A stretch of DNA of 64,000 bases from the NCBI GenBank assembly GCA_951406725.2, contig OX597826.1:46190001-46254000 (forward strand), written 5' to 3'. The notes beneath the pieces were generated by a model. It ran no database searches and was not told where the DNA came from. It saw only the letters and a program-made list of their open reading frames with translations. The DNA comes from Octopus vulgaris (lineage: Eukaryota). Below, in pieces: positions 1 to 59,599 of the stretch. The position numbers and the translations under genes are program-made. Numbering within the stretch: the first letter of the stretch is position 1; every line of letters begins with the position of its first letter.

Positions 1-352
1 CTATCTTCCCAGTTAGCCTACCTTTGACATTGCTGCACCTCTTATGTGTCCATAGCTTACACTGGGTACATCTTATAGAGTTTCTACCTACACCTTTTCT
101 ACAGATCGAGCAGGGCCATCTTCCTGAGGATATTTGTGGGTTTTCTACCTTTCTACTTATTAGTACTTTGGTTTTAGCTAGGTTGACTCTAAGGCCCCTC
201 GATTCTAAACCCTCCTTCCACACCTGGAACTTCTCCTCCAGTTCTGATAGTGACTCAGCGATTAGAGCGAGGTCGTCAGCATAGAGGAGCTCCCAGGGGC
301 AACCTGTCTTGAATTCCTCCGTTATTGCCTGGAGGACTATGATAAATAGGAG
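1..352 (-). pseudogene. Frameshifted continuation of the RTE ORF: YADD, thumb and a PHD-like Cys/His cluster
   Basis: Manual translation: LLFIIVLQAITEEFKTGCPWELLYADDLALIAES...VNLAKTKVL...WPCSICRKGVGRNSIRCTQCKLWTHKRCSNVKGRLTGKI. Confidence 0.85.
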
Positions 353-2328
353 GGGCTGAGTACTGAACCCTGGTGGACCCCAACCTCTACTTTGAATTCT
401 TCTGTGTACATGTTGCCAACTCTAACCTTACTTACGGCATCTCTGTACATGGCTTGCACAGCCCTCACCAGCCATTCATCTATCCCTAGTTTCCTCATTG
501 ACCACCAGATGAGGGATCGGGGGACCCTATCAAAGGCTTTCTCCATGTCAACGAAAGCCAGGTACAGGGGCTTATCCTTGGCTAGGTATTTCTCCTGCAG
601 CTGCCTTACCAGGAATATAGCATCAGTGGTGCTTTTCCCTGGGACAAACCCAAACTGCATCTCATCTAAACTAACTCTCTCTCTAATTAGTTGGGCTATG
701 ACCCTCTCCGTAACCTTCATTACCTGATCCAACAGCTTGATACCTCTGTAATTATTTGTATCCAGGGCATCACCTTTACCTTTGTAGCAGTTGACTAGTA
801 TGCTGCTACACCAGTCATTGGGTATGACTCCTTCGTGTATCACCTGGTTGACTATACGGGTGACTAGGTTATAGCCGACACTGCCAGATATTTTGAGCAT
901 CTCTGCAGTAATTCCTGATGGGCCTGGGGCTTTCCCTGTCTTCATGCTTCTAATTGCCTTAGCTACCACGGAACTATCAACTCGGATAGCTGGTCCCTCT
1001 GTTGGGTCAACATTTGGCAGACTCTCTTTATCCCATTCATTTTCTTTATTCAGCAAACTTTCATAGTGGCATCTCCAAACCTCTCTCTTTGCATCCTCAT
1101 TTAGCGCAAGTGAACCATCATCCATGCGAACACACTTCTCTCCTACCACATCACGATTCTCTCTCACACACTGTCTTGCAACACGAAATACCTCAAGTCT
1201 TTCATCCTCACGGCTCAGAACATTGGCAAATTTTTTCTTATCCGCTTCCCCTCTGGCTAAATAAACCTGTCTCCTAGCTTCCCTTTTGGCTGTCTGATAC
1301 AATTCCCTGCTACCACTGTTCTTCCAGTCCTTCCAAGCCTGTCTCTTTTGTCTAATAGCCCCGTCAACCACCGTGTTCCACCACCATGTAACTCTGGGTC
1401 GAGATGGTACTTTGCTCCATCCACAGATCTGGTCAGTGGCTGTCAGCAGATTGTCCCGTAGGAATCTCCAGTTGTCTTCCACATTAAGTGGAGCTATATC
1501 CCCTTCTATTTCGTCAGAGGCTTCGAGTAGTATGTCTCTAAATCTCTGTCCATTTGCAGGATCTTTAAGCTTCCAGACCCTTCTCCTCCAAGCTGGTCTT
1601 CTTCTGGGCAACCATTTAGCTCTGATCCTGAAGTCGCTAACTACTAATCTATGTTGGGGAGTACATTCTTCGCCTGGGAAGGTTTTGGCATTTATAATCA
1701 GCCCTCTTTCCCTTTTTCTGGCAAGGATGTAGTCAATCTGGCTGGTGTGTCTGCCAGAACGGTAGGTGACTAGGTGAGAGGTGGGTTTCCTGAAGTGGGT
1801 ATTGCAGACCATAAGGTCATTTGCATCGCAGAACTCCAGCAGCCTGGTTCCCTCCTCATTTCGAGAGCCAAAACCGTGGCCTCCATGGATGCCATGGAAG
1901 CCCCTGACATGTCGTCCAACATGTCCATTGAAATCACCTGCCACGAAGAGAAGGTCACTGTCATTTGTCAATGAGGTAGTCCGCAATAGGGTGTCATAGA
2001 ATTGGTCTTTTTGTCCTTCCGGTAGCCCTGGTTGAGGGGCATATGCCGAGATGATGGTAGCTGTCCTATGGTGAAGAACTAATCTAATTTTAATTACTCT
2101 GTCACTTACTCTGACTACCTCGATTACCTTACCTATCCATTTCTCCGCAAGAAGTATACCCACGCCCCCGACTCCGTCAATGTTCCCTGCCCAGAAAATC
2201 TTGTACCTGTGTTCCTTGCCCGTGAGGAGCCTAGCAGAACCTCCTCTCCACCTTACTTCCTGGATACAGCATACATCCACACGTCTCCGTTCAAGCAGCT
2301 CTACAATCTCTCCAGACCTACCTTTCAA
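337..2328 (-). CDS. RTE ORF: AP-like endonuclease plus N-terminal part of reverse transcriptase (663 aa in track)
   Basis: ORF track translation with EN and RT motifs. The frame is open upstream to at least 2415 without an ATG and ends early because of a 1-nt frameshift near 352-355. Confidence 0.9.
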   Translation of the reverse strand: MKGRSGEIVELLERRRVDVCCIQEVRWRGGSARLLTGKEHRYKIFWAGNIDGVGGVGILLAEKWIGKVIEVVRVSDRVIKIRLVLHHRTATIISAYAPQPGLPEGQKDQFYDTLLRTTSLTNDSDLLFVAGDFNGHVGRHVRGFHGIHGGHGFGSRNEEGTRLLEFCDANDLMVCNTHFRKPTSHLVTYRSGRHTSQIDYILARKRERGLIINAKTFPGEECTPQHRLVVSDFRIRAKWLPRRRPAWRRRVWKLKDPANGQRFRDILLEASDEIEGDIAPLNVEDNWRFLRDNLLTATDQICGWSKVPSRPRVTWWWNTVVDGAIRQKRQAWKDWKNSGSRELYQTAKREARRQVYLARGEADKKKFANVLSREDERLEVFRVARQCVRENRDVVGEKCVRMDDGSLALNEDAKREVWRCHYESLLNKENEWDKESLPNVDPTEGPAIRVDSSVVAKAIRSMKTGKAPGPSGITAEMLKISGSVGYNLVTRIVNQVIHEGVIPNDWCSSILVNCYKGKGDALDTNNYRGIKLLDQVMKVTERVIAQLIRERVSLDEMQFGFVPGKSTTDAIFLVRQLQEKYLAKDKPLYLAFVDMEKAFDRVPRSLIWWSMRKLGIDEWLVRAVQAMYRDAVSKVRVGNMYTEEFKVEVGVHQGSVLSPSYLS

Positions 2329-2435
2329 TGTGCCAACGTTGAGCGTGCCAACTCTGAGGGTTTGGGAGGTGTGGGCATCAGAGACCCTGGGACGAGGGAC
2401 AGCAGTGTCATGTACCTGAAATATATATATATATA

Positions 2436-2596
2436 TACGACGGGCTTCTTTCAGTTTCTATCTACCAAATTCAATCAAAAGGCTTTGGTTAGCCCAGGTC
2501 TACAGTAGAAGACACTTGCCCAAGGTACCACAGTGGGACTGAACCTGGAACTATGCAGTTGGGAAGCTTCTTACCACACTGCCACACCCGCACCTA
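2436..2596 (-). mobile_element. tRNA-headed SINE family A, 5' half (interrupted at its internal TA tract by the RTE)
   Basis: Matches the head of full copies at 8417 and 57249 (GGTTCAGTCCCACTG B-box-like motif, CCTTGGGCAAGTGTCTTCTACT). Confidence 0.8.
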
Positions 2597-3123: not shown

Positions 3124-4244
3124 AGTGAAATGTAACACTTATTATCCACATTCTTTTGAAATAATATCTTGTGGCTCCAAAATTTCAAGTATGTGAGAAT
3201 TTACATTTAGAATGACATTTTAGGATAGGTGTAAGAGTTCAGATCGGGTCAGTTTGGACAAAAAGCAAATTGAATATTTGGGCTGGATATGGCAGATTTA
3301 AATTGCTTATGGGTAAAACTGCATCCAGTGGTGAGGCTCCATCTTGGGAGTTTAGGGGTTTTAGGGAGTAAGGAAAGGAGTTAACCCTTAGTCACCCCTA
3401 CTCCAACATTTGCCCTGATCAGAAATGATAGTCTCTGCCAAAGACTCTAGTTATGGGTCAAACAGTAGATGATGGTCCTGTAAGGTAAGGCAAACAGGAC
3501 TTGGAGAAGAGCTGACCCCTAGACACATGTCATACAGGCCCACCAGTTTGTGGGCACATCCTGATTATGAGTGAACCAATCCTCCTGCATAAGGACAAAA
3601 CAGGCTTTGATGCTTTAAGGATATGCTTCAGAGAGCAGAAAACTAGCAGAGTAAACTGTGGGTAAACACGAAACCACTGCTGGATCTTTTTCAAGGAAAG
3701 TCATGAATCTTCAAGCTTTGGCATGGAGGCCCATAACAAAAGTCTGTAGGAGAGAGAGAAAGATAGAGAGGGAGAGAGAAGAGGAGAGAATGAAAGGGGA
3801 GAGAAAGAATAGAGAGACAGAGAGGAGAGAGATAGAGAGAGTTAAATTTGCTCCTGCTGTGAATTTATGTGAGACCCTTTCATTAATTCTTTTCTAACTA
3901 AGCTGCCTGAGACTTTCTGATTTTACTTTGAGTGATGGTGTATCATTCAGAACTACAGAACAATTTGGAAAAGAATTTCTTAACTTCCTCCATGCTCTGA
4001 CTGACACACTGTCACTCAAAATACAACTAACCTCTTGTCCACTTGAAGCCCAACCTCTACCCAGCCATTAAAGCGTCTTCTCTCGTAAGATAGTTTGATT
4101 TCAGCCTCACCAATGAAATTCACTTTGTACCTTCTTACTAAACAACATTTCATGATCACCACTCCTACCCACAATACACACACATACAAATCATAGGGTA
4201 CCTGACAGTGTTCTTCAACTACTACACCAACAGATGAACTTTAA

Positions 4245-4688
4245 CCCTTTAGCTTTTAAACAGGCAATATCCGGCCCAATTATTCTACATGTTTTACATT
4301 CAAACTGGCCATATCTAGCCACTCATATCTAACCTACATTGACATTCTAAAAAGTAATCAATCACATAACTGAAACCTCAAAACTATAAGAGAATACATG
4401 ATCAAGTCAAAACAGTTCGAATATAAAAGCATTCCATTCAACAGAATAATCTGAATGCTTAACCCTTTAGTATTCAGATTATTCAATCAAACATAATGCC
4501 TATTGAATCCCATTGATTTGAATTAATCATGCATTATCTCATATCTTCAAGATCTTGATGGTGTAATTACTTAATGTAGAATAACATTGTAGGGTAGGTG
4601 TGAGAGCCTGGATCTGGTCAGTTTGAACATAAAACAGATTAGCTATTTTGGCCGGATATGGCCGGTTTAAATACTAAAGGGTTAAAGG
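4245..4688. mobile_element. Two nested piggyBac-like TTAA MITEs (family 1) in opposite orientation
   Basis: TTAA|CCCTTTAG at 4241; inner copy TTAA|CCCTTTAG...CTAAAGGG|TTAA at 4463-4681. Related copies near 2600-2777, 2813-3320, 6558-6760, 9743-9975, 43410-43630 and 62060-62250. Confidence 0.75.
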
Positions 4689-7550: not shown

Positions 7551-7865
7551 ACATATAAAGGGTGAAATATAATTAATTTAATAAAATCAATAAATTTCAC
7601 CTAGTAGTCTTTCGGTATGGAAGGGACCATATTCGGTAAATTATATAATTATAATAAAGGGTTTTTTGCAACAAGTTGCTTAAACCACATACCGAAAATA
7701 TTAGAAATAGCAGTCAAATGGGCTGCTATTACTACTACAATAATAAGTCTGTTGTTTGTGGAGATTTATTTTTGTAGTAATAGTAATAGTAGCCCATTTG
7801 ACTGCTATTTCTAATATTTTCGGTATGTGGTTTAAGCAAATTGTTGCAAAAAAAACCCTTTATTA

Positions 7866-7875
<10 letters not shown>
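7546..7875. mobile_element. (TA)n-embedded short element with about 100-bp inverted arms (7642-7740 and 7772-7875)
   Basis: Arm TATAATAAAGGGTTTTTTGCAACAAGTTGCTTAAACCACATACCGAAAATATTAGAAATAGCAGTCAAATGGGCT recurs as its reverse complement; flanked by (TA)n on both sides. Confidence 0.75.
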
Positions 7876-13697: not shown

Positions 13698-13745
<48 letters not shown>

Positions 13746-14275
13746 CAAATGTGAGGATAAAATTCTTTTCGAAAAAAATATTTTCTCGAAAAAATTTTAT
13801 CAATGGCCAACATATTAAAAAATACCTTTAACGGTTAAATTTATAAACAATTCATAAATGAGGGCAAAGGAAAAAATTTCTAATGCCAAATATGCCGAAA
13901 AATTGGACATATTGTCCATTAGCCATATAATATTTTCACAATACTACTCGAAAAAAGGTCAACAGAAATTTCTAACAAATTCCATTATTACCATATCAGA
14001 CTGATTTCAGAGTTAGCTACTAAGAGCCCTCTCTTCGTCAGTGATACATGTGGTAAAAGAAATAAATGAGATACTTACTCATACCCACGGAAGAAGCAAA
14101 TACTAAGTCGTGGGCACAACTAAGTACCCCAAATACATCCAAAATAGAAATACTCCGGCCCATTCGAGTAGCGTGCGTATTGTGAAAATATTATATGGTT
14201 AATGGACAATATGTCCAATTTTTCGGCATATTTGGCATTAGAAATTTTTTCCTTTGCCCTCATTTATGAATTGAT
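13746..14275. mobile_element. (TA)n-embedded Penelope-like non-autonomous element with inverted arms (13848-13952 and 14163-14273)
   Basis: About 100-bp near-perfect inverted repeat enclosing a hammerhead-like motif. Confidence 0.65.
13994..14046 (-). ncRNA. Type I hammerhead ribozyme, decayed stem III
   Basis: Minus: TATCA-CTGACGA-AGAG..CTCT-GAAA-TCAG-TC-TGATA. Stems I and II pair; stem III resembles a mutated CCGG palindrome. Confidence 0.6.
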
Positions 14276-14796
14276 TATATATATACATATATATATATAT
14301 ATACATATATATATGTATGCATATATATTAGAGGAAAGGACAAAAAACAAGGTGAATCCACCTTGCTCTAATTAAATTATGACTTTAGATACGTGTCCTG
14401 CCTTGGATTTTATTGACCTTTTCCTCTAATATATACATGCTAGCATGGAAGCCTAATACGCGTCCCTAGCTCCAGCCTCATCTGTGAACTTGGAACCTAA
14501 CAAATGACTCAGCGTACTTATTCGTTTAGATCACCAGTGAACTAAACTCCTCATATTCTTTATATATGCACGCACACACACACATGTGTATGACAGGCAT
14601 CCACACAATTTCTGTCTACCAAATTCACTCACACAGCACTGATTGGCCTGGGGCTATAGCAAGGTGCTGTGCAATGGGGCTGAGCCCAAAACCATGTGCT
14701 CGAAAAGCAAACTTCTTAACCACACAACCATGATTGGTTGGTTAATTGATTAATTGATGGATGGATATACACACATATATATATACATATTCTTTT

Positions 14797-17816: not shown

Positions 17817-18121
17817 GTTCATGTATCAGTTGCAGCTTTTAGGTATAAGAGAAAATATTGTCTATGCGCCTAGTGTAAAGAACACCTGAAAAGAAGACTG
17901 TGACTTATTTTCAGTTGTTTTTCACACCAGGTGCATAGAGAATATATTTTCTTACAGAAATAAATATATTTCTAAATTTATTTAGCCCTAGGAAACAGTG
18001 TTTCCTAGGGCTAAAAAACAGTAGCATTCTTCCCTTTCATGGGACTGTCACATTAAGTTGTCAACATACTATAACTTTATGTTTTCTTATGCCTAAAAAA
18101 AACTACAGCCGATTCATGAAC
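17817..18121. mobile_element. Foldback/MITE-like element with nested inverted repeats
   Basis: Outer IR GTTCATGTATCAGTTGCAG..TTTTAGGTATAAGA / TCTTATGCCTAAAA..CTACAGCCGATTCATGAAC; inner IR about 17847-17954; perfect 17-bp-arm palindrome at 17981-18015. Confidence 0.6.
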
Positions 18122-38134: not shown

Positions 38135-38189
<55 letters not shown>

Positions 38190-38375
38190 CCGGAGTAAAC
38201 ACATAAATGTGAAACAAGGTGGAAAAAAGAGTACTCAAATACCAGTGGTAGAGTAATATGCTTTGTTTAAAGCAGCAGAAAATTCAACAAAACCTGTTAC
38301 TCTGAGTTTCCTGTTGCCGGCAACGGGAAACTCAGAGTAACAGGTTCTGTTGAATTTTCTGCTGCTTTAAATAAA

Positions 38376-38380
<5 letters not shown>
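38190..38380. mobile_element. (TA)n-embedded short element ending in a spacer-less palindrome with 62-bp arms (38257-38380)
   Basis: Centre ...GAGTTTCCTGTTGCC|GGCAACGGGAAACTC... between 38318 and 38319, with only a few mismatches. Confidence 0.8.
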
Positions 38381-38416
<36 letters not shown>

Positions 38417-48641: not shown

Positions 48642-48752
48642 GCCCACACACACACATGTACTGCCATATATAGCATGTGTGCATGATATGCATATGCAGA
48701 TATATACATATATATATACATATACAGCTACACAAGTGCCCATATGCACATA

Positions 48753-48785
<33 letters not shown>

Positions 48786-48801
48786 TTATTATATAGAAGG
48801 A

Positions 48802-48850
48802 GCTTCTACAGGACTAGTACTGTTTCATTCAAGAGAAATCTTCAGGAAGC
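48802..48850 (-). ncRNA. Type I hammerhead ribozyme (intact core nucleotides)
   Basis: Minus GCTTC-CTGAAGA-T-TTC-TCTT-GAA-T-GAAA-CAG-TACTAGTC-CTG-TA-GAAGC. Stem I 5 bp, stem III CAG/CTG, GUA triplet; stem II weak. Confidence 0.7.
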
Positions 48851-48855
48851 AGGAA

Positions 48856-48907
48856 GCTTCCTGAAGATTTCTCTTGAATGAAACAGTACTAGTCTGTAGA
48901 ACTCCTT
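48856..48907 (+). ncRNA. Type I hammerhead ribozyme, inverted sister copy
   Basis: GCTTC-CTGAAGA-TTTCTCTTGAAT-GAAA-CAG-TACTAGT-CTG-TA-GAACTCC; two 1-nt deletions relative to the minus copy. Confidence 0.65.
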
Positions 48908-48983
48908 CTATATAATAAATTAATTTTACTCTGCTATGTATTGAGTACCTTACTTATGTGGTTAACCCCGTATCAACCCGGGA

Positions 48984-49063
<80 letters not shown>

Positions 49064-58512: not shown

Positions 58513-59599
58513 CAGGGTGCAGTGAATAAACTGTCATCTAAGTTACACAAAAATGAAAAATATAACACTGACATCTCATTTTAAAAGATATATTTACCAA
58601 AATTACATAAAGATATTTTTGAAATACTTTTCTTTTCTACTCTAGGCACAAGGCCCTAAATTTTAGGGGAGGAGGCCAGTCGATTAGATCAACTCCAGTA
58701 TGCAACTGGTACTTAATTTATCGACCCTGAAAGAATGGAAGGCAAAATCGACCTTGGTGGAATTTGAACTCAAAAGACAGACAAAATACAGCTAAGCATT
58801 TTGCCCGGTGTGCTAACGTTTCTGCCAGCTTGCTGCCTTCAAAATATCTTGAAATACTAAAGGAGTGAATTTATTCAATAAAATCACCATTGGCTCTCAA
58901 CCATGGCCTCCAGATGACTTTGGAATCTCCTGCAACTCTTCTGGATGGTCTCTTTGCTTAAGTTGGTGAAAGCTGCCATAATCCTTGCCTTCAGTTCATC
59001 TTTGGTGTTACAAGGAGTTTTGTTAGTCTCTCGCTCAATTGTGCCCCACACATAATAATGAAGGGGGTTACAGTCTGGGGAGTTAGGTGGCCAGATGTTA
59101 GGAGTGATGTGGTTGCAGAAATTGTCTGACAACCACAAAGGGTTCTCCTGCTTGTATGGCATGGTGCAGAGTCCTGTTGCCAGACATAGCGTCTTCCAGC
59201 AGCCACCCTCTTGACTCAGGGCAGAACTACTTCCTCCAGGCACTGCCTGAGGCAGTGTGGGAAGATGAATGGAGGCATAATATCGCCATCACTAGTGATC
59301 ACTCCAAATACTATAACGTTGACTGGATGATTGATTTTTATCACTCTTGGTACATGTCATCAGATGAACAGCCAAACACTCTGAAATGTTAATAGTGGAG
59401 CTTCCAGCTCAAATGCTAAGCAGAACAGCATGCCATTTCTAAATCTCTGGCAGAGTGAATTGCATCATGGTGCTGTTTTTCTCACAGACGGTGCCCAACT
59501 GTCCCGTCTATACTGTGTAGTCGATAAAATCAAAAACAACCAATGTGCATGCGCAAAATAAAAACTATAAAATGGCAACAATTTATCCATTGCACCCTG
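58513..59599 (-). mobile_element. Internally deleted Tc1/mariner (DD37D, maT-like) DNA transposon with a SINE B inserted at about 58630-58839
   Basis: TIRs CAGGGTGCAGTGAATAAACTGTC and (reverse complement) CAGGGTGCAATGGATAAATTGTT in TA-rich flanks; transposase remnant inside. Confidence 0.85.
58884..59330 (-). pseudogene. Decayed mariner-like transposase catalytic domain
   Basis: HPVNVIVFGVITSDGDIMPPFIFPH..LP*VKRVAAGRRYVWQQDSAPCHTS [frameshift] WLSDNF..WPPNSPDCNPLHYYVWG..DELKARI. About 37 residues separate the second and third catalytic positions; the third D reads H. Confidence 0.85.

Follow-up and report, generated by a model that had tools for sequence, protein, structure and literature searches.

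The region described here lies within a window of 64 kb (the whole stretch of octopus DNA that was analysed), which is AT-rich, of animal type and crowded with microsatellites and repeats. Positions 48784-48989 hold a unit of 206 bp composed of an inverted arm on the minus strand (48784-48850, 67 nt), a loop (48851-48855, AGGAA, 5 nt) and a direct copy on the plus strand (48855-48989, 135 nt), which represents the 3' end, truncated on its 5' side, of a high-copy family of probable retroelements and whose first part is mirrored by the inverted arm. The unit is bordered on the left by a (TA)n run of 23 nt (48763-48785), the final two bases of which overlap the end of the inverted arm, and on the right by an (AT)n run of 42 nt (48989-49030); beyond these TA runs, (GT)n follows on the left side and (GA)n on the right. 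The 206 bp thus read as an insertion in a compound (TA)n microsatellite with the TA run as the likely target, and the presence of TA on both sides hides the target-site duplication. Neither an RT nor a GIY-YIG ORF is present in the 206-bp copy, a GIY-YIG match was obtained for none of the 138 ORF pieces of the window, and the sole RT matches stem from a LINE with an AP endonuclease at 2-2457 (minus strand). This LINE, which we take to be of the RTE type, appears fairly intact, with AP endonuclease and RT and a frame of 706 aa; its RT extends into a second frame, in which a weak PHD-like match is located.

The palindrome and its two hammerhead motifs

A palindrome with arms at 48784-48850 and 48856-48920 had been described in the first-pass annotation, and it is real and located exactly there. 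The arms (67 and 65 nt, respectively) differ only in that the right one lacks two single bases, a C behind 48893 and a G behind 48901, and the RNA fold of both arms together has an energy of -102.5 kcal/mol (z -18.7), a stability reached by 0 of 200 shuffled sequences. The centre on the plus strand reads CAGGAAG-CAGGAAG-CTTCCTG, in which a duplicated piece of 7 nt adjoins a perfect palindrome of 14 nt with its centre at AG|CT (48856|48857). The right arm extends to 48989, so that the direct copy is longer than the inverted arm, whose end is an AT-rich stretch grading into the TA run, 69 nt before the 3' end of the element. Inverted repeats at both termini, as in a MITE or a TIR DNA transposon, are absent: the mirror comprises the first 65 of the 135 nt of the direct copy and the right terminus is partnerless. 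No further copies of the family were detected elsewhere in the window by blastn, and exact-pattern scans for the unit gave no match in viral contigs, metagenome contigs or prokaryote genomes.

Each arm contains the elements of a type I hammerhead core, namely CUGAAGA, GAAA, a stem III of CAG/CUG and the cleavage triplet GUA. The two opposed cores start at 48861 on the plus strand and at 48845 on the minus strand and are 15 nt apart. The plus-strand hammerhead (48855-48904), assigned from sequence, descriptor, fold and contigs, is composed of the 5' strand of stem I (48855-48860, the six bases AGCTTC, complementary to GAAGCT), the core (48861-48867), a U·U followed by a 3-bp stem II with a UCUU loop (48868-48879), GAAA (48880-48883) and a stem III with a self-complementary loop (48884-48896), and the cut is predicted at 48898|48899. 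The 3' strand of its stem I is damaged by the loss of one G.

The motifs were searched for with a type I descriptor that tolerated a mismatch at positions 10.1/11.1 and was applied at two settings, requiring 3/3/3 or 5/3/3 bp in the stems. At 3/3/3 bp, three cores were found in the window, both arms and a further core at 14041 on the minus strand, compared with 0.02 cores per 64 kb in shuffled versions of the window, where four of the 200 contained a core. At 5/3/3 bp, for which the shuffle expectation was 0.005, only the minus arm and the core at 14041 passed. The minus arm has stems I, II and III of 5, 3 and 4 bp, respectively, pair probabilities of 0.91-0.95 in stem I and a hammerhead fold of -6.9 kcal/mol. 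Because of the lost G, stem I of the plus arm is reduced to 3 bp, with pair probabilities of 0.32-0.45 and a hammerhead fold of -0.5 kcal/mol, and in these models the plus-arm ribozyme looks damaged. The proposal that either strand yields one sense ribozyme thus holds for the letters of the core, whereas stem I of the plus arm is mostly gone (3 bp vs. 5 bp).

In both arms, as in the family, the canonical G10.1-C11.1 pair is absent and a U·U is found in its place. Stem II is thinly populated in both arms (pair probabilities 0.05-0.11), and the self-duplex of stem III is calculated at about -15 kcal/mol vs. -1.5 kcal/mol for the hairpin. The Rfam hammerhead models gave no match at the gathering threshold over the 64-kb window and were absent among the 68 matches at E≤10 over 48700-49050; the miRNA models with matches at E≤10 scored far under their gathering scores and reflect a generic hairpin shape. 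On the basis of its sequence, the motif is filed as a Hydra-type hammerhead variant and not as the canonical form.

Two further inserts of the window bear hammerhead motifs and follow the same plan: a short inverted arm is joined to a longer direct copy, and TA borders the insert on either side. The first one (13745-14285, minus strand) belongs to a different family and contains the core at 14041, for which the descriptor gave stems of 5/4/4 bp; its inverted 5' arm (14163-14285) mirrors 13836-13952, which results in a mirror of 117-123 nt around a spacer of 210 nt, with an extra piece of 6 nt close to the junction and a TA run on each side. The other one (38189-38381), likewise unrelated to the unit at 48784-48989, includes a palindrome at 38256-38381 with a mirror of 62 nt, which is centred in GTTGCC|GGCAAC, likely a stem II, just ahead of a half-hammerhead: both arms carry only the 3' half of the motif (GAAA CTC A GAG TA). 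Leftward, its direct copy reaches as far as a TA run near 38189, and TA at about 38380 closes the short arm.

It had also been suggested that a transcript across both arms would form a long hairpin that could sequester the ribozyme or serve as a Dicer or ADAR substrate, and a locus selected as a bidirectional ribozyme or as a source of hairpin RNA, in which read-through gives a duplex of roughly 65 bp, would agree with the intact letters of both cores, with the very stable two-arm fold and with the small RNAs reported for Penelope copies in Adineta vaga (PMC3846280, consulted in part). We nevertheless consider such a locus very improbable, since stem I of the plus arm is broken, the same plan occurs in two unrelated inserts of the window, one of them with half a hammerhead per arm, no host coding exon was recognized among the 138 ORF pieces, and hammerhead mutants of a Poseidon element were unaffected in insertion in vitro, so that cleavage was not needed there (PMC11167929, in the part available). 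An insertion by-product explains all three inserts, which a selected two-way ribozyme does not. As a physical structure, the modelled hairpin is a plausible substrate for Dicer or ADAR if the locus is read through. A-to-I editing is heavy in cephalopods.

Other repeats of the window include an imperfect palindrome of 233 bp (7642-7875, 87.5%) with TA at its right end, possibly a fold-back insert or a MITE, in which no hammerhead core was found; a diverged inverted-repeat element of 450 bp (4239-4687) with relatives elsewhere in the window; a near-perfect palindrome of 41 bp (17978-18018); and a frame of 134 aa (58887-59288, minus strand), which has no Pfam match at E≤0.001 and resembles the C-terminus of a Tc1/mariner transposase.

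A high-copy family with a recurrent fold-back junction

Part of the stretch is shared by 24 public runs, four of which (X1, X2, X4 and X15, from three samples) were aligned to 48826-48996. Contigs fitting this interval numbered 2864 in X1, 161 in X2, 303 in X4 and 24 in X15, figures that are contig counts and not copy numbers; the contigs are mostly 45-85 nt long. The sequence 48855-48989 belongs to a high-copy family. The exact locus was not found among the 24 runs, the best of which contained a fraction of 0.35 of 17 sampled words, and no listed contig spans the stretch. Dips in contig depth at 48898-48903 and after 48956 coincide with gaps of this copy itself, and depth was therefore set aside as a gauge of copy number, of 3' ends or of cleavage; likewise, the zero cover over 48826-48849 in X15, a run guessed to be RNA, has no bearing on expression.

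The only substitution listed at a frequency of at least 5% over 48826-48996 is A>T at 48888, where T is the majority letter in all four runs and both arms share the minority A, as expected if a single template gave rise to both. At the U·U positions, no alternative letter reached 5% in any of the four runs. This invariance indicates that a stem II with U·U is the normal state of the family, and decay or CpG loss of this copy was rejected as the origin of the U·U, which the family contigs carry too; the earlier caveat that stem II is weak is borne out by its pair probabilities, but the U·U does not point to decay. The C and the G missing from the right arm are present in most family contigs and are retained in the inverted arm, so that the left arm is the better preserved one.

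Upstream of 48855, at least 28 contigs of X1, at least nine of X4 and at least two of X15 have loose ends with ordinary, non-palindromic, AT-rich sequence, of which 30 letters are visible. The palindrome is thus not the only form of the family, and since ordinary copies run upstream of 48855, the family sequence begins at AGCTTC in this copy. Positions 48851-48854 are non-family sequence and were rejected as a native part of stem I, as the family upstream sequence joins at 48855. The upstream sequence is pyrimidine-rich and reads ...TAACT before AG|CTTC, which resembles a 3' splice site at the centre of the inversion and may simply be the usual U-rich flank; for comparison, the 5' end of helix I marks where the intron of the D. 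virilis Penelope element stops (PMC4209133, in the part consulted). At the other end, family copies pass from the same 3' end into TA as well.

The fold-back itself recurs in the family. Seven bases are missing at 48843 in 17 contigs, which corresponds to a spacer of 0 nt; one contig lacks eight bases at 48842, again with a 0-nt spacer and with an arm one base shorter; and three contigs lack eight bases at 48851, which leaves a spacer of 3 nt, compared with 5 nt in this copy. The 0-nt centre is therefore found in 18 of the 21 gapped junction contigs. In 18 and one more contigs, a loose end of the mirror type is located at 48850 and accompanied by a core variant of the CUGAUGA type; the consensus of these loose ends finishes in TA after a shorter arm, its far end being read from the handful of longest contigs, as the loose ends have a median length of 9. 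Altogether, 40 of the listed contigs, 21 gapped and 19 with loose ends, from runs X1, X2 and X4, fold back at AGCT, vs. 39 with ordinary upstream sequence. This recurrence is one among the listed contigs and does not measure an enrichment over other sites.

Recurrence of the AGCT junction with spacers of 0, 3 and 5 nt suggests that the mirror arm is rebuilt at insertion. That the inversion arose during reverse transcription, starting at the 5' strand of stem I, had been put forward from this one copy, and the occurrence of the same junction in the 21 gapped and 19 loose-end contigs makes it likely. Restriction and ligation at AGCT during library preparation was judged an unlikely source, because neither head-to-head joints of one and the same repeat in two samples nor spacers of 3 and 5 nt would be expected from it. 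An assembly or library fold-back artefact more generally is hardly credible to us: the absence of the exact locus from the public runs and the two gaps of the right arm, which could be read errors, would fit it, but the mirror symmetry breaks off after 67 nt and the two flanks do not mirror one another, which speaks against a folded-back read, contigs of both sample S1 and sample S2 contain the junction site, and two further inserts of the window have the same plan.

Another alternative is a non-autonomous mini-element with a hammerhead, similar to a retrozyme or a SINE, which is moved in trans by a Penelope enzyme and in which the palindrome possibly is a master copied as a unit. A short non-coding end at very high copy number would be typical of it, a single successful master could account for the 0-nt centre in 18 of the 21 gapped contigs, and animal retrozymes have been proposed to derive from Penelope pLTRs (10.64898/2026.07.22.740005, seen in part). 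On the other hand, the locus consists of a single unit and not of a tandem array, the 3' end leads into TA and not into a further unit in the contigs shown, no end-to-start (tandem) joint is listed among the short contigs, and the variety of forms, with spacers of 0, 3 and 5 nt, two variants of the core and arms of at least two lengths, suggests that the palindrome formed repeatedly. We regard the mini-element as improbable.

Resemblance to Penelope-like elements of the Hydra clade

We consider it highly probable that the unit is the 3' stub of a Penelope-like element with a mirror arm made at insertion. Head-to-head inverted, 5'-truncated copies with junction palindromes are standard for EN+ Penelope-like elements (PMC8557442 and PMC3846280; these and the papers cited below were used in part), and such a copy is present here at the 5' end and recurs in the family. 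The inverted pLTRs of Arkhipova et al. 2013 (PMC3846280) follow the same plan, with a junction palindrome, a shorter inverted copy and joins at microhomologies; the present case differs in that the insert comprises 206 bp, is ORF-less and has its centre in stem I of the hammerhead, and in that we place priming at the end of the cDNA, whereas self-priming on an antisense template is argued for in that work. Opposed hammerhead pairs at distances of 100-700 bp occur in Schistosoma mansoni, and an opposite-strand copy in a Cotesia element (PMC4209133). Inverted ends and opposed hammerheads have hence already been published for Penelope-like elements, and this family is a further case.

An assignment to the Hydra clade specifically is somewhat favoured, and from its sequence the unit probably resembles a 3' end of this clade, a resemblance that does not establish membership. 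According to File S2 of PMC8557442, 14 of the 25 families of the Hydra clade, from three phyla, have U after CUGANGA and U before GAAA, as does the motif described here; to take this shape as a mark of the clade is our own reading of the file and not a published criterion. Four of these 14 families have a stem III of the form acag...ctgt-a, as in the octopus motif (Hydra-1_aMil, Penelope-1_NV, Penelope-1_SK and Penelope-2_SK, the last of which ends in c). The distance from the start of the hammerhead to the 3' end is 154 nt here and 87-425 nt (median 141, n = 24 families, omitting one that has only a 5' position) in the clade, most families falling at about 90-210 nt (PMC8557442). (TA)n targets are given for nearly all families of the clade in File S1 and match the TA run at this locus, a preference that is common to Naiad and Neptune too and thus not specific to Hydra (PMC8557442). 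Penelope-13_HM has an inverted 5' copy and hammerheads on both strands, as does the unit described here (PMC8557442).

There are also differences. The loop of stem III has 8 nt with a palindromic core, in contrast to 1-3 nt in the listed Hydra families; the protein marks of the clade (RWK, DKT, a CxCX5C linker, no CCHH) and its place in the RT phylogeny belong to an ORF, which the 206-bp copy lacks; Hydra-1_Obim has a hammerhead of different sequence from the motif at 48855-48904; and six motifs of the 48855-48989 family were not found in the examined part of the supplement (all PMC8557442). Compared with the minimal hammerheads of Cervera and de la Pena 2014 (PMC4209133), the motif agrees in type I topology and in a palindromic stem III/loop 3 fit for dimers, and like the Penelope hammerheads of that study it has a U-rich 5' flank and occurs mostly as solo truncated copies. 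The consensus of that study has an extra base, G10.1-C11.1 and a long stem II, whereas here a stem II of 3 bp lies behind the U·U; in the extracted text of its Figure S3, the U·U form is seen only in the Hydra magnipapillata row out of 56. Animal non-LTR retrozymes (PMC7229834; 10.64898/2026.07.22.740005) resemble the family in being short, non-coding, high-copy, linked to Penelope and equipped with a type I hammerhead; they differ in forming tandem units of 150-450 nt (PMC7229834), in contrast to the solitary unit found here, whose head is inverted and which lies within a TA run. In the literature consulted, nothing specific was found on an octopus or cephalopod Penelope hammerhead of this family, nor on an assay of U·U at 10.1/11.1, including the accessible parts of PMC544870 and PMC2837043. 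The U·U hammerhead may also be an active variant.

Proposed insertion mechanism and significance

For the preferred stub with an insertion-made mirror arm, the following sequence of events can be proposed. The endonuclease of the element would nick the TA run, and reverse transcription would start at the 3' end near a terminal stem-loop at 48957-48989 (plus strand, 33 nt, -11.1 kcal/mol, z -1.95, 9 of 200 shuffles as stable). By analogy with a Poseidon element, for which the available part of the source describes nicking and extension of both target strands and priming that begins in a stem-loop (PMC11167929), this structure is a candidate for a 'tail', which in EN+ Penelope-like elements is optional, measures 30-40 nt and has a stem-loop at its end, or for a start structure of reverse transcription. 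The copy reads through the predicted cut site 48898|48899, and family sequence stops at 48855; the template was thus uncleaved or rejoined at the cut site. The cDNA 3' end ...GAAGCT would then prime on itself or on a sister cDNA via AGCT, which would yield a 0- or 3-nt spacer in other copies, and a slip of 7 nt would have left the 5-nt loop here. After 67 nt, the new strand would be captured by the other TA end at the AT-rich stretch, and the right arm may later have lost two single bases, unless these are assembly errors. Some 42 nt separate the turn-around from the predicted cut site downstream of it, so that cleavage does not account for the turn. Most likely, the second hammerhead is an insertion by-product and the locus is inert.

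With respect to the turn itself, the short inverted arms favour fold-back of a cDNA, whereas the excess of zero spacers favours the annealing of two cDNAs, or later trimming. A more far-reaching variant, which we put forward as a doubtful possibility, is that the AGCT in the 5' strand of stem I acts as an intrinsic stop-and-turn site of the Penelope reverse transcriptase. On this view, since no simple hairpin can give rise to a palindrome with zero spacer, the prevalence of this form (18 of the 21 gapped junction contigs) would mean that two cDNAs, which an enzyme dimer has primed from the two nicked strands of the TA target, anneal end to end through AGCT, and the folded ribozyme would serve as a structural cue for closing the insertion and not as a cutter.

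As a single locus, 48784-48989 is likely a dead stub and matters little, the window alone having three hammerhead-bearing inserts of the same plan. The family is a useful natural data set on inverted 5' ends and on the role of the hammerhead, which is open for Penelope-like elements (PMC8557442 and PMC11167929, in the parts consulted). With its recurrent turn-around in stem I and its spacers of 0, 3 and 5 nt, the family allows both the fold-back model and the two-cDNA model to be tested on a genome assembly, and the U·U hammerhead is assayable as a 60-nt RNA. The residual value of the finding hence consists in the recurrent AGCT turn-around and in a form of the hammerhead with U·U that apparently is unassayed, and if the stop-and-turn reading is true, thousands of junction variants would provide a genome-wide readout of the second-strand step.
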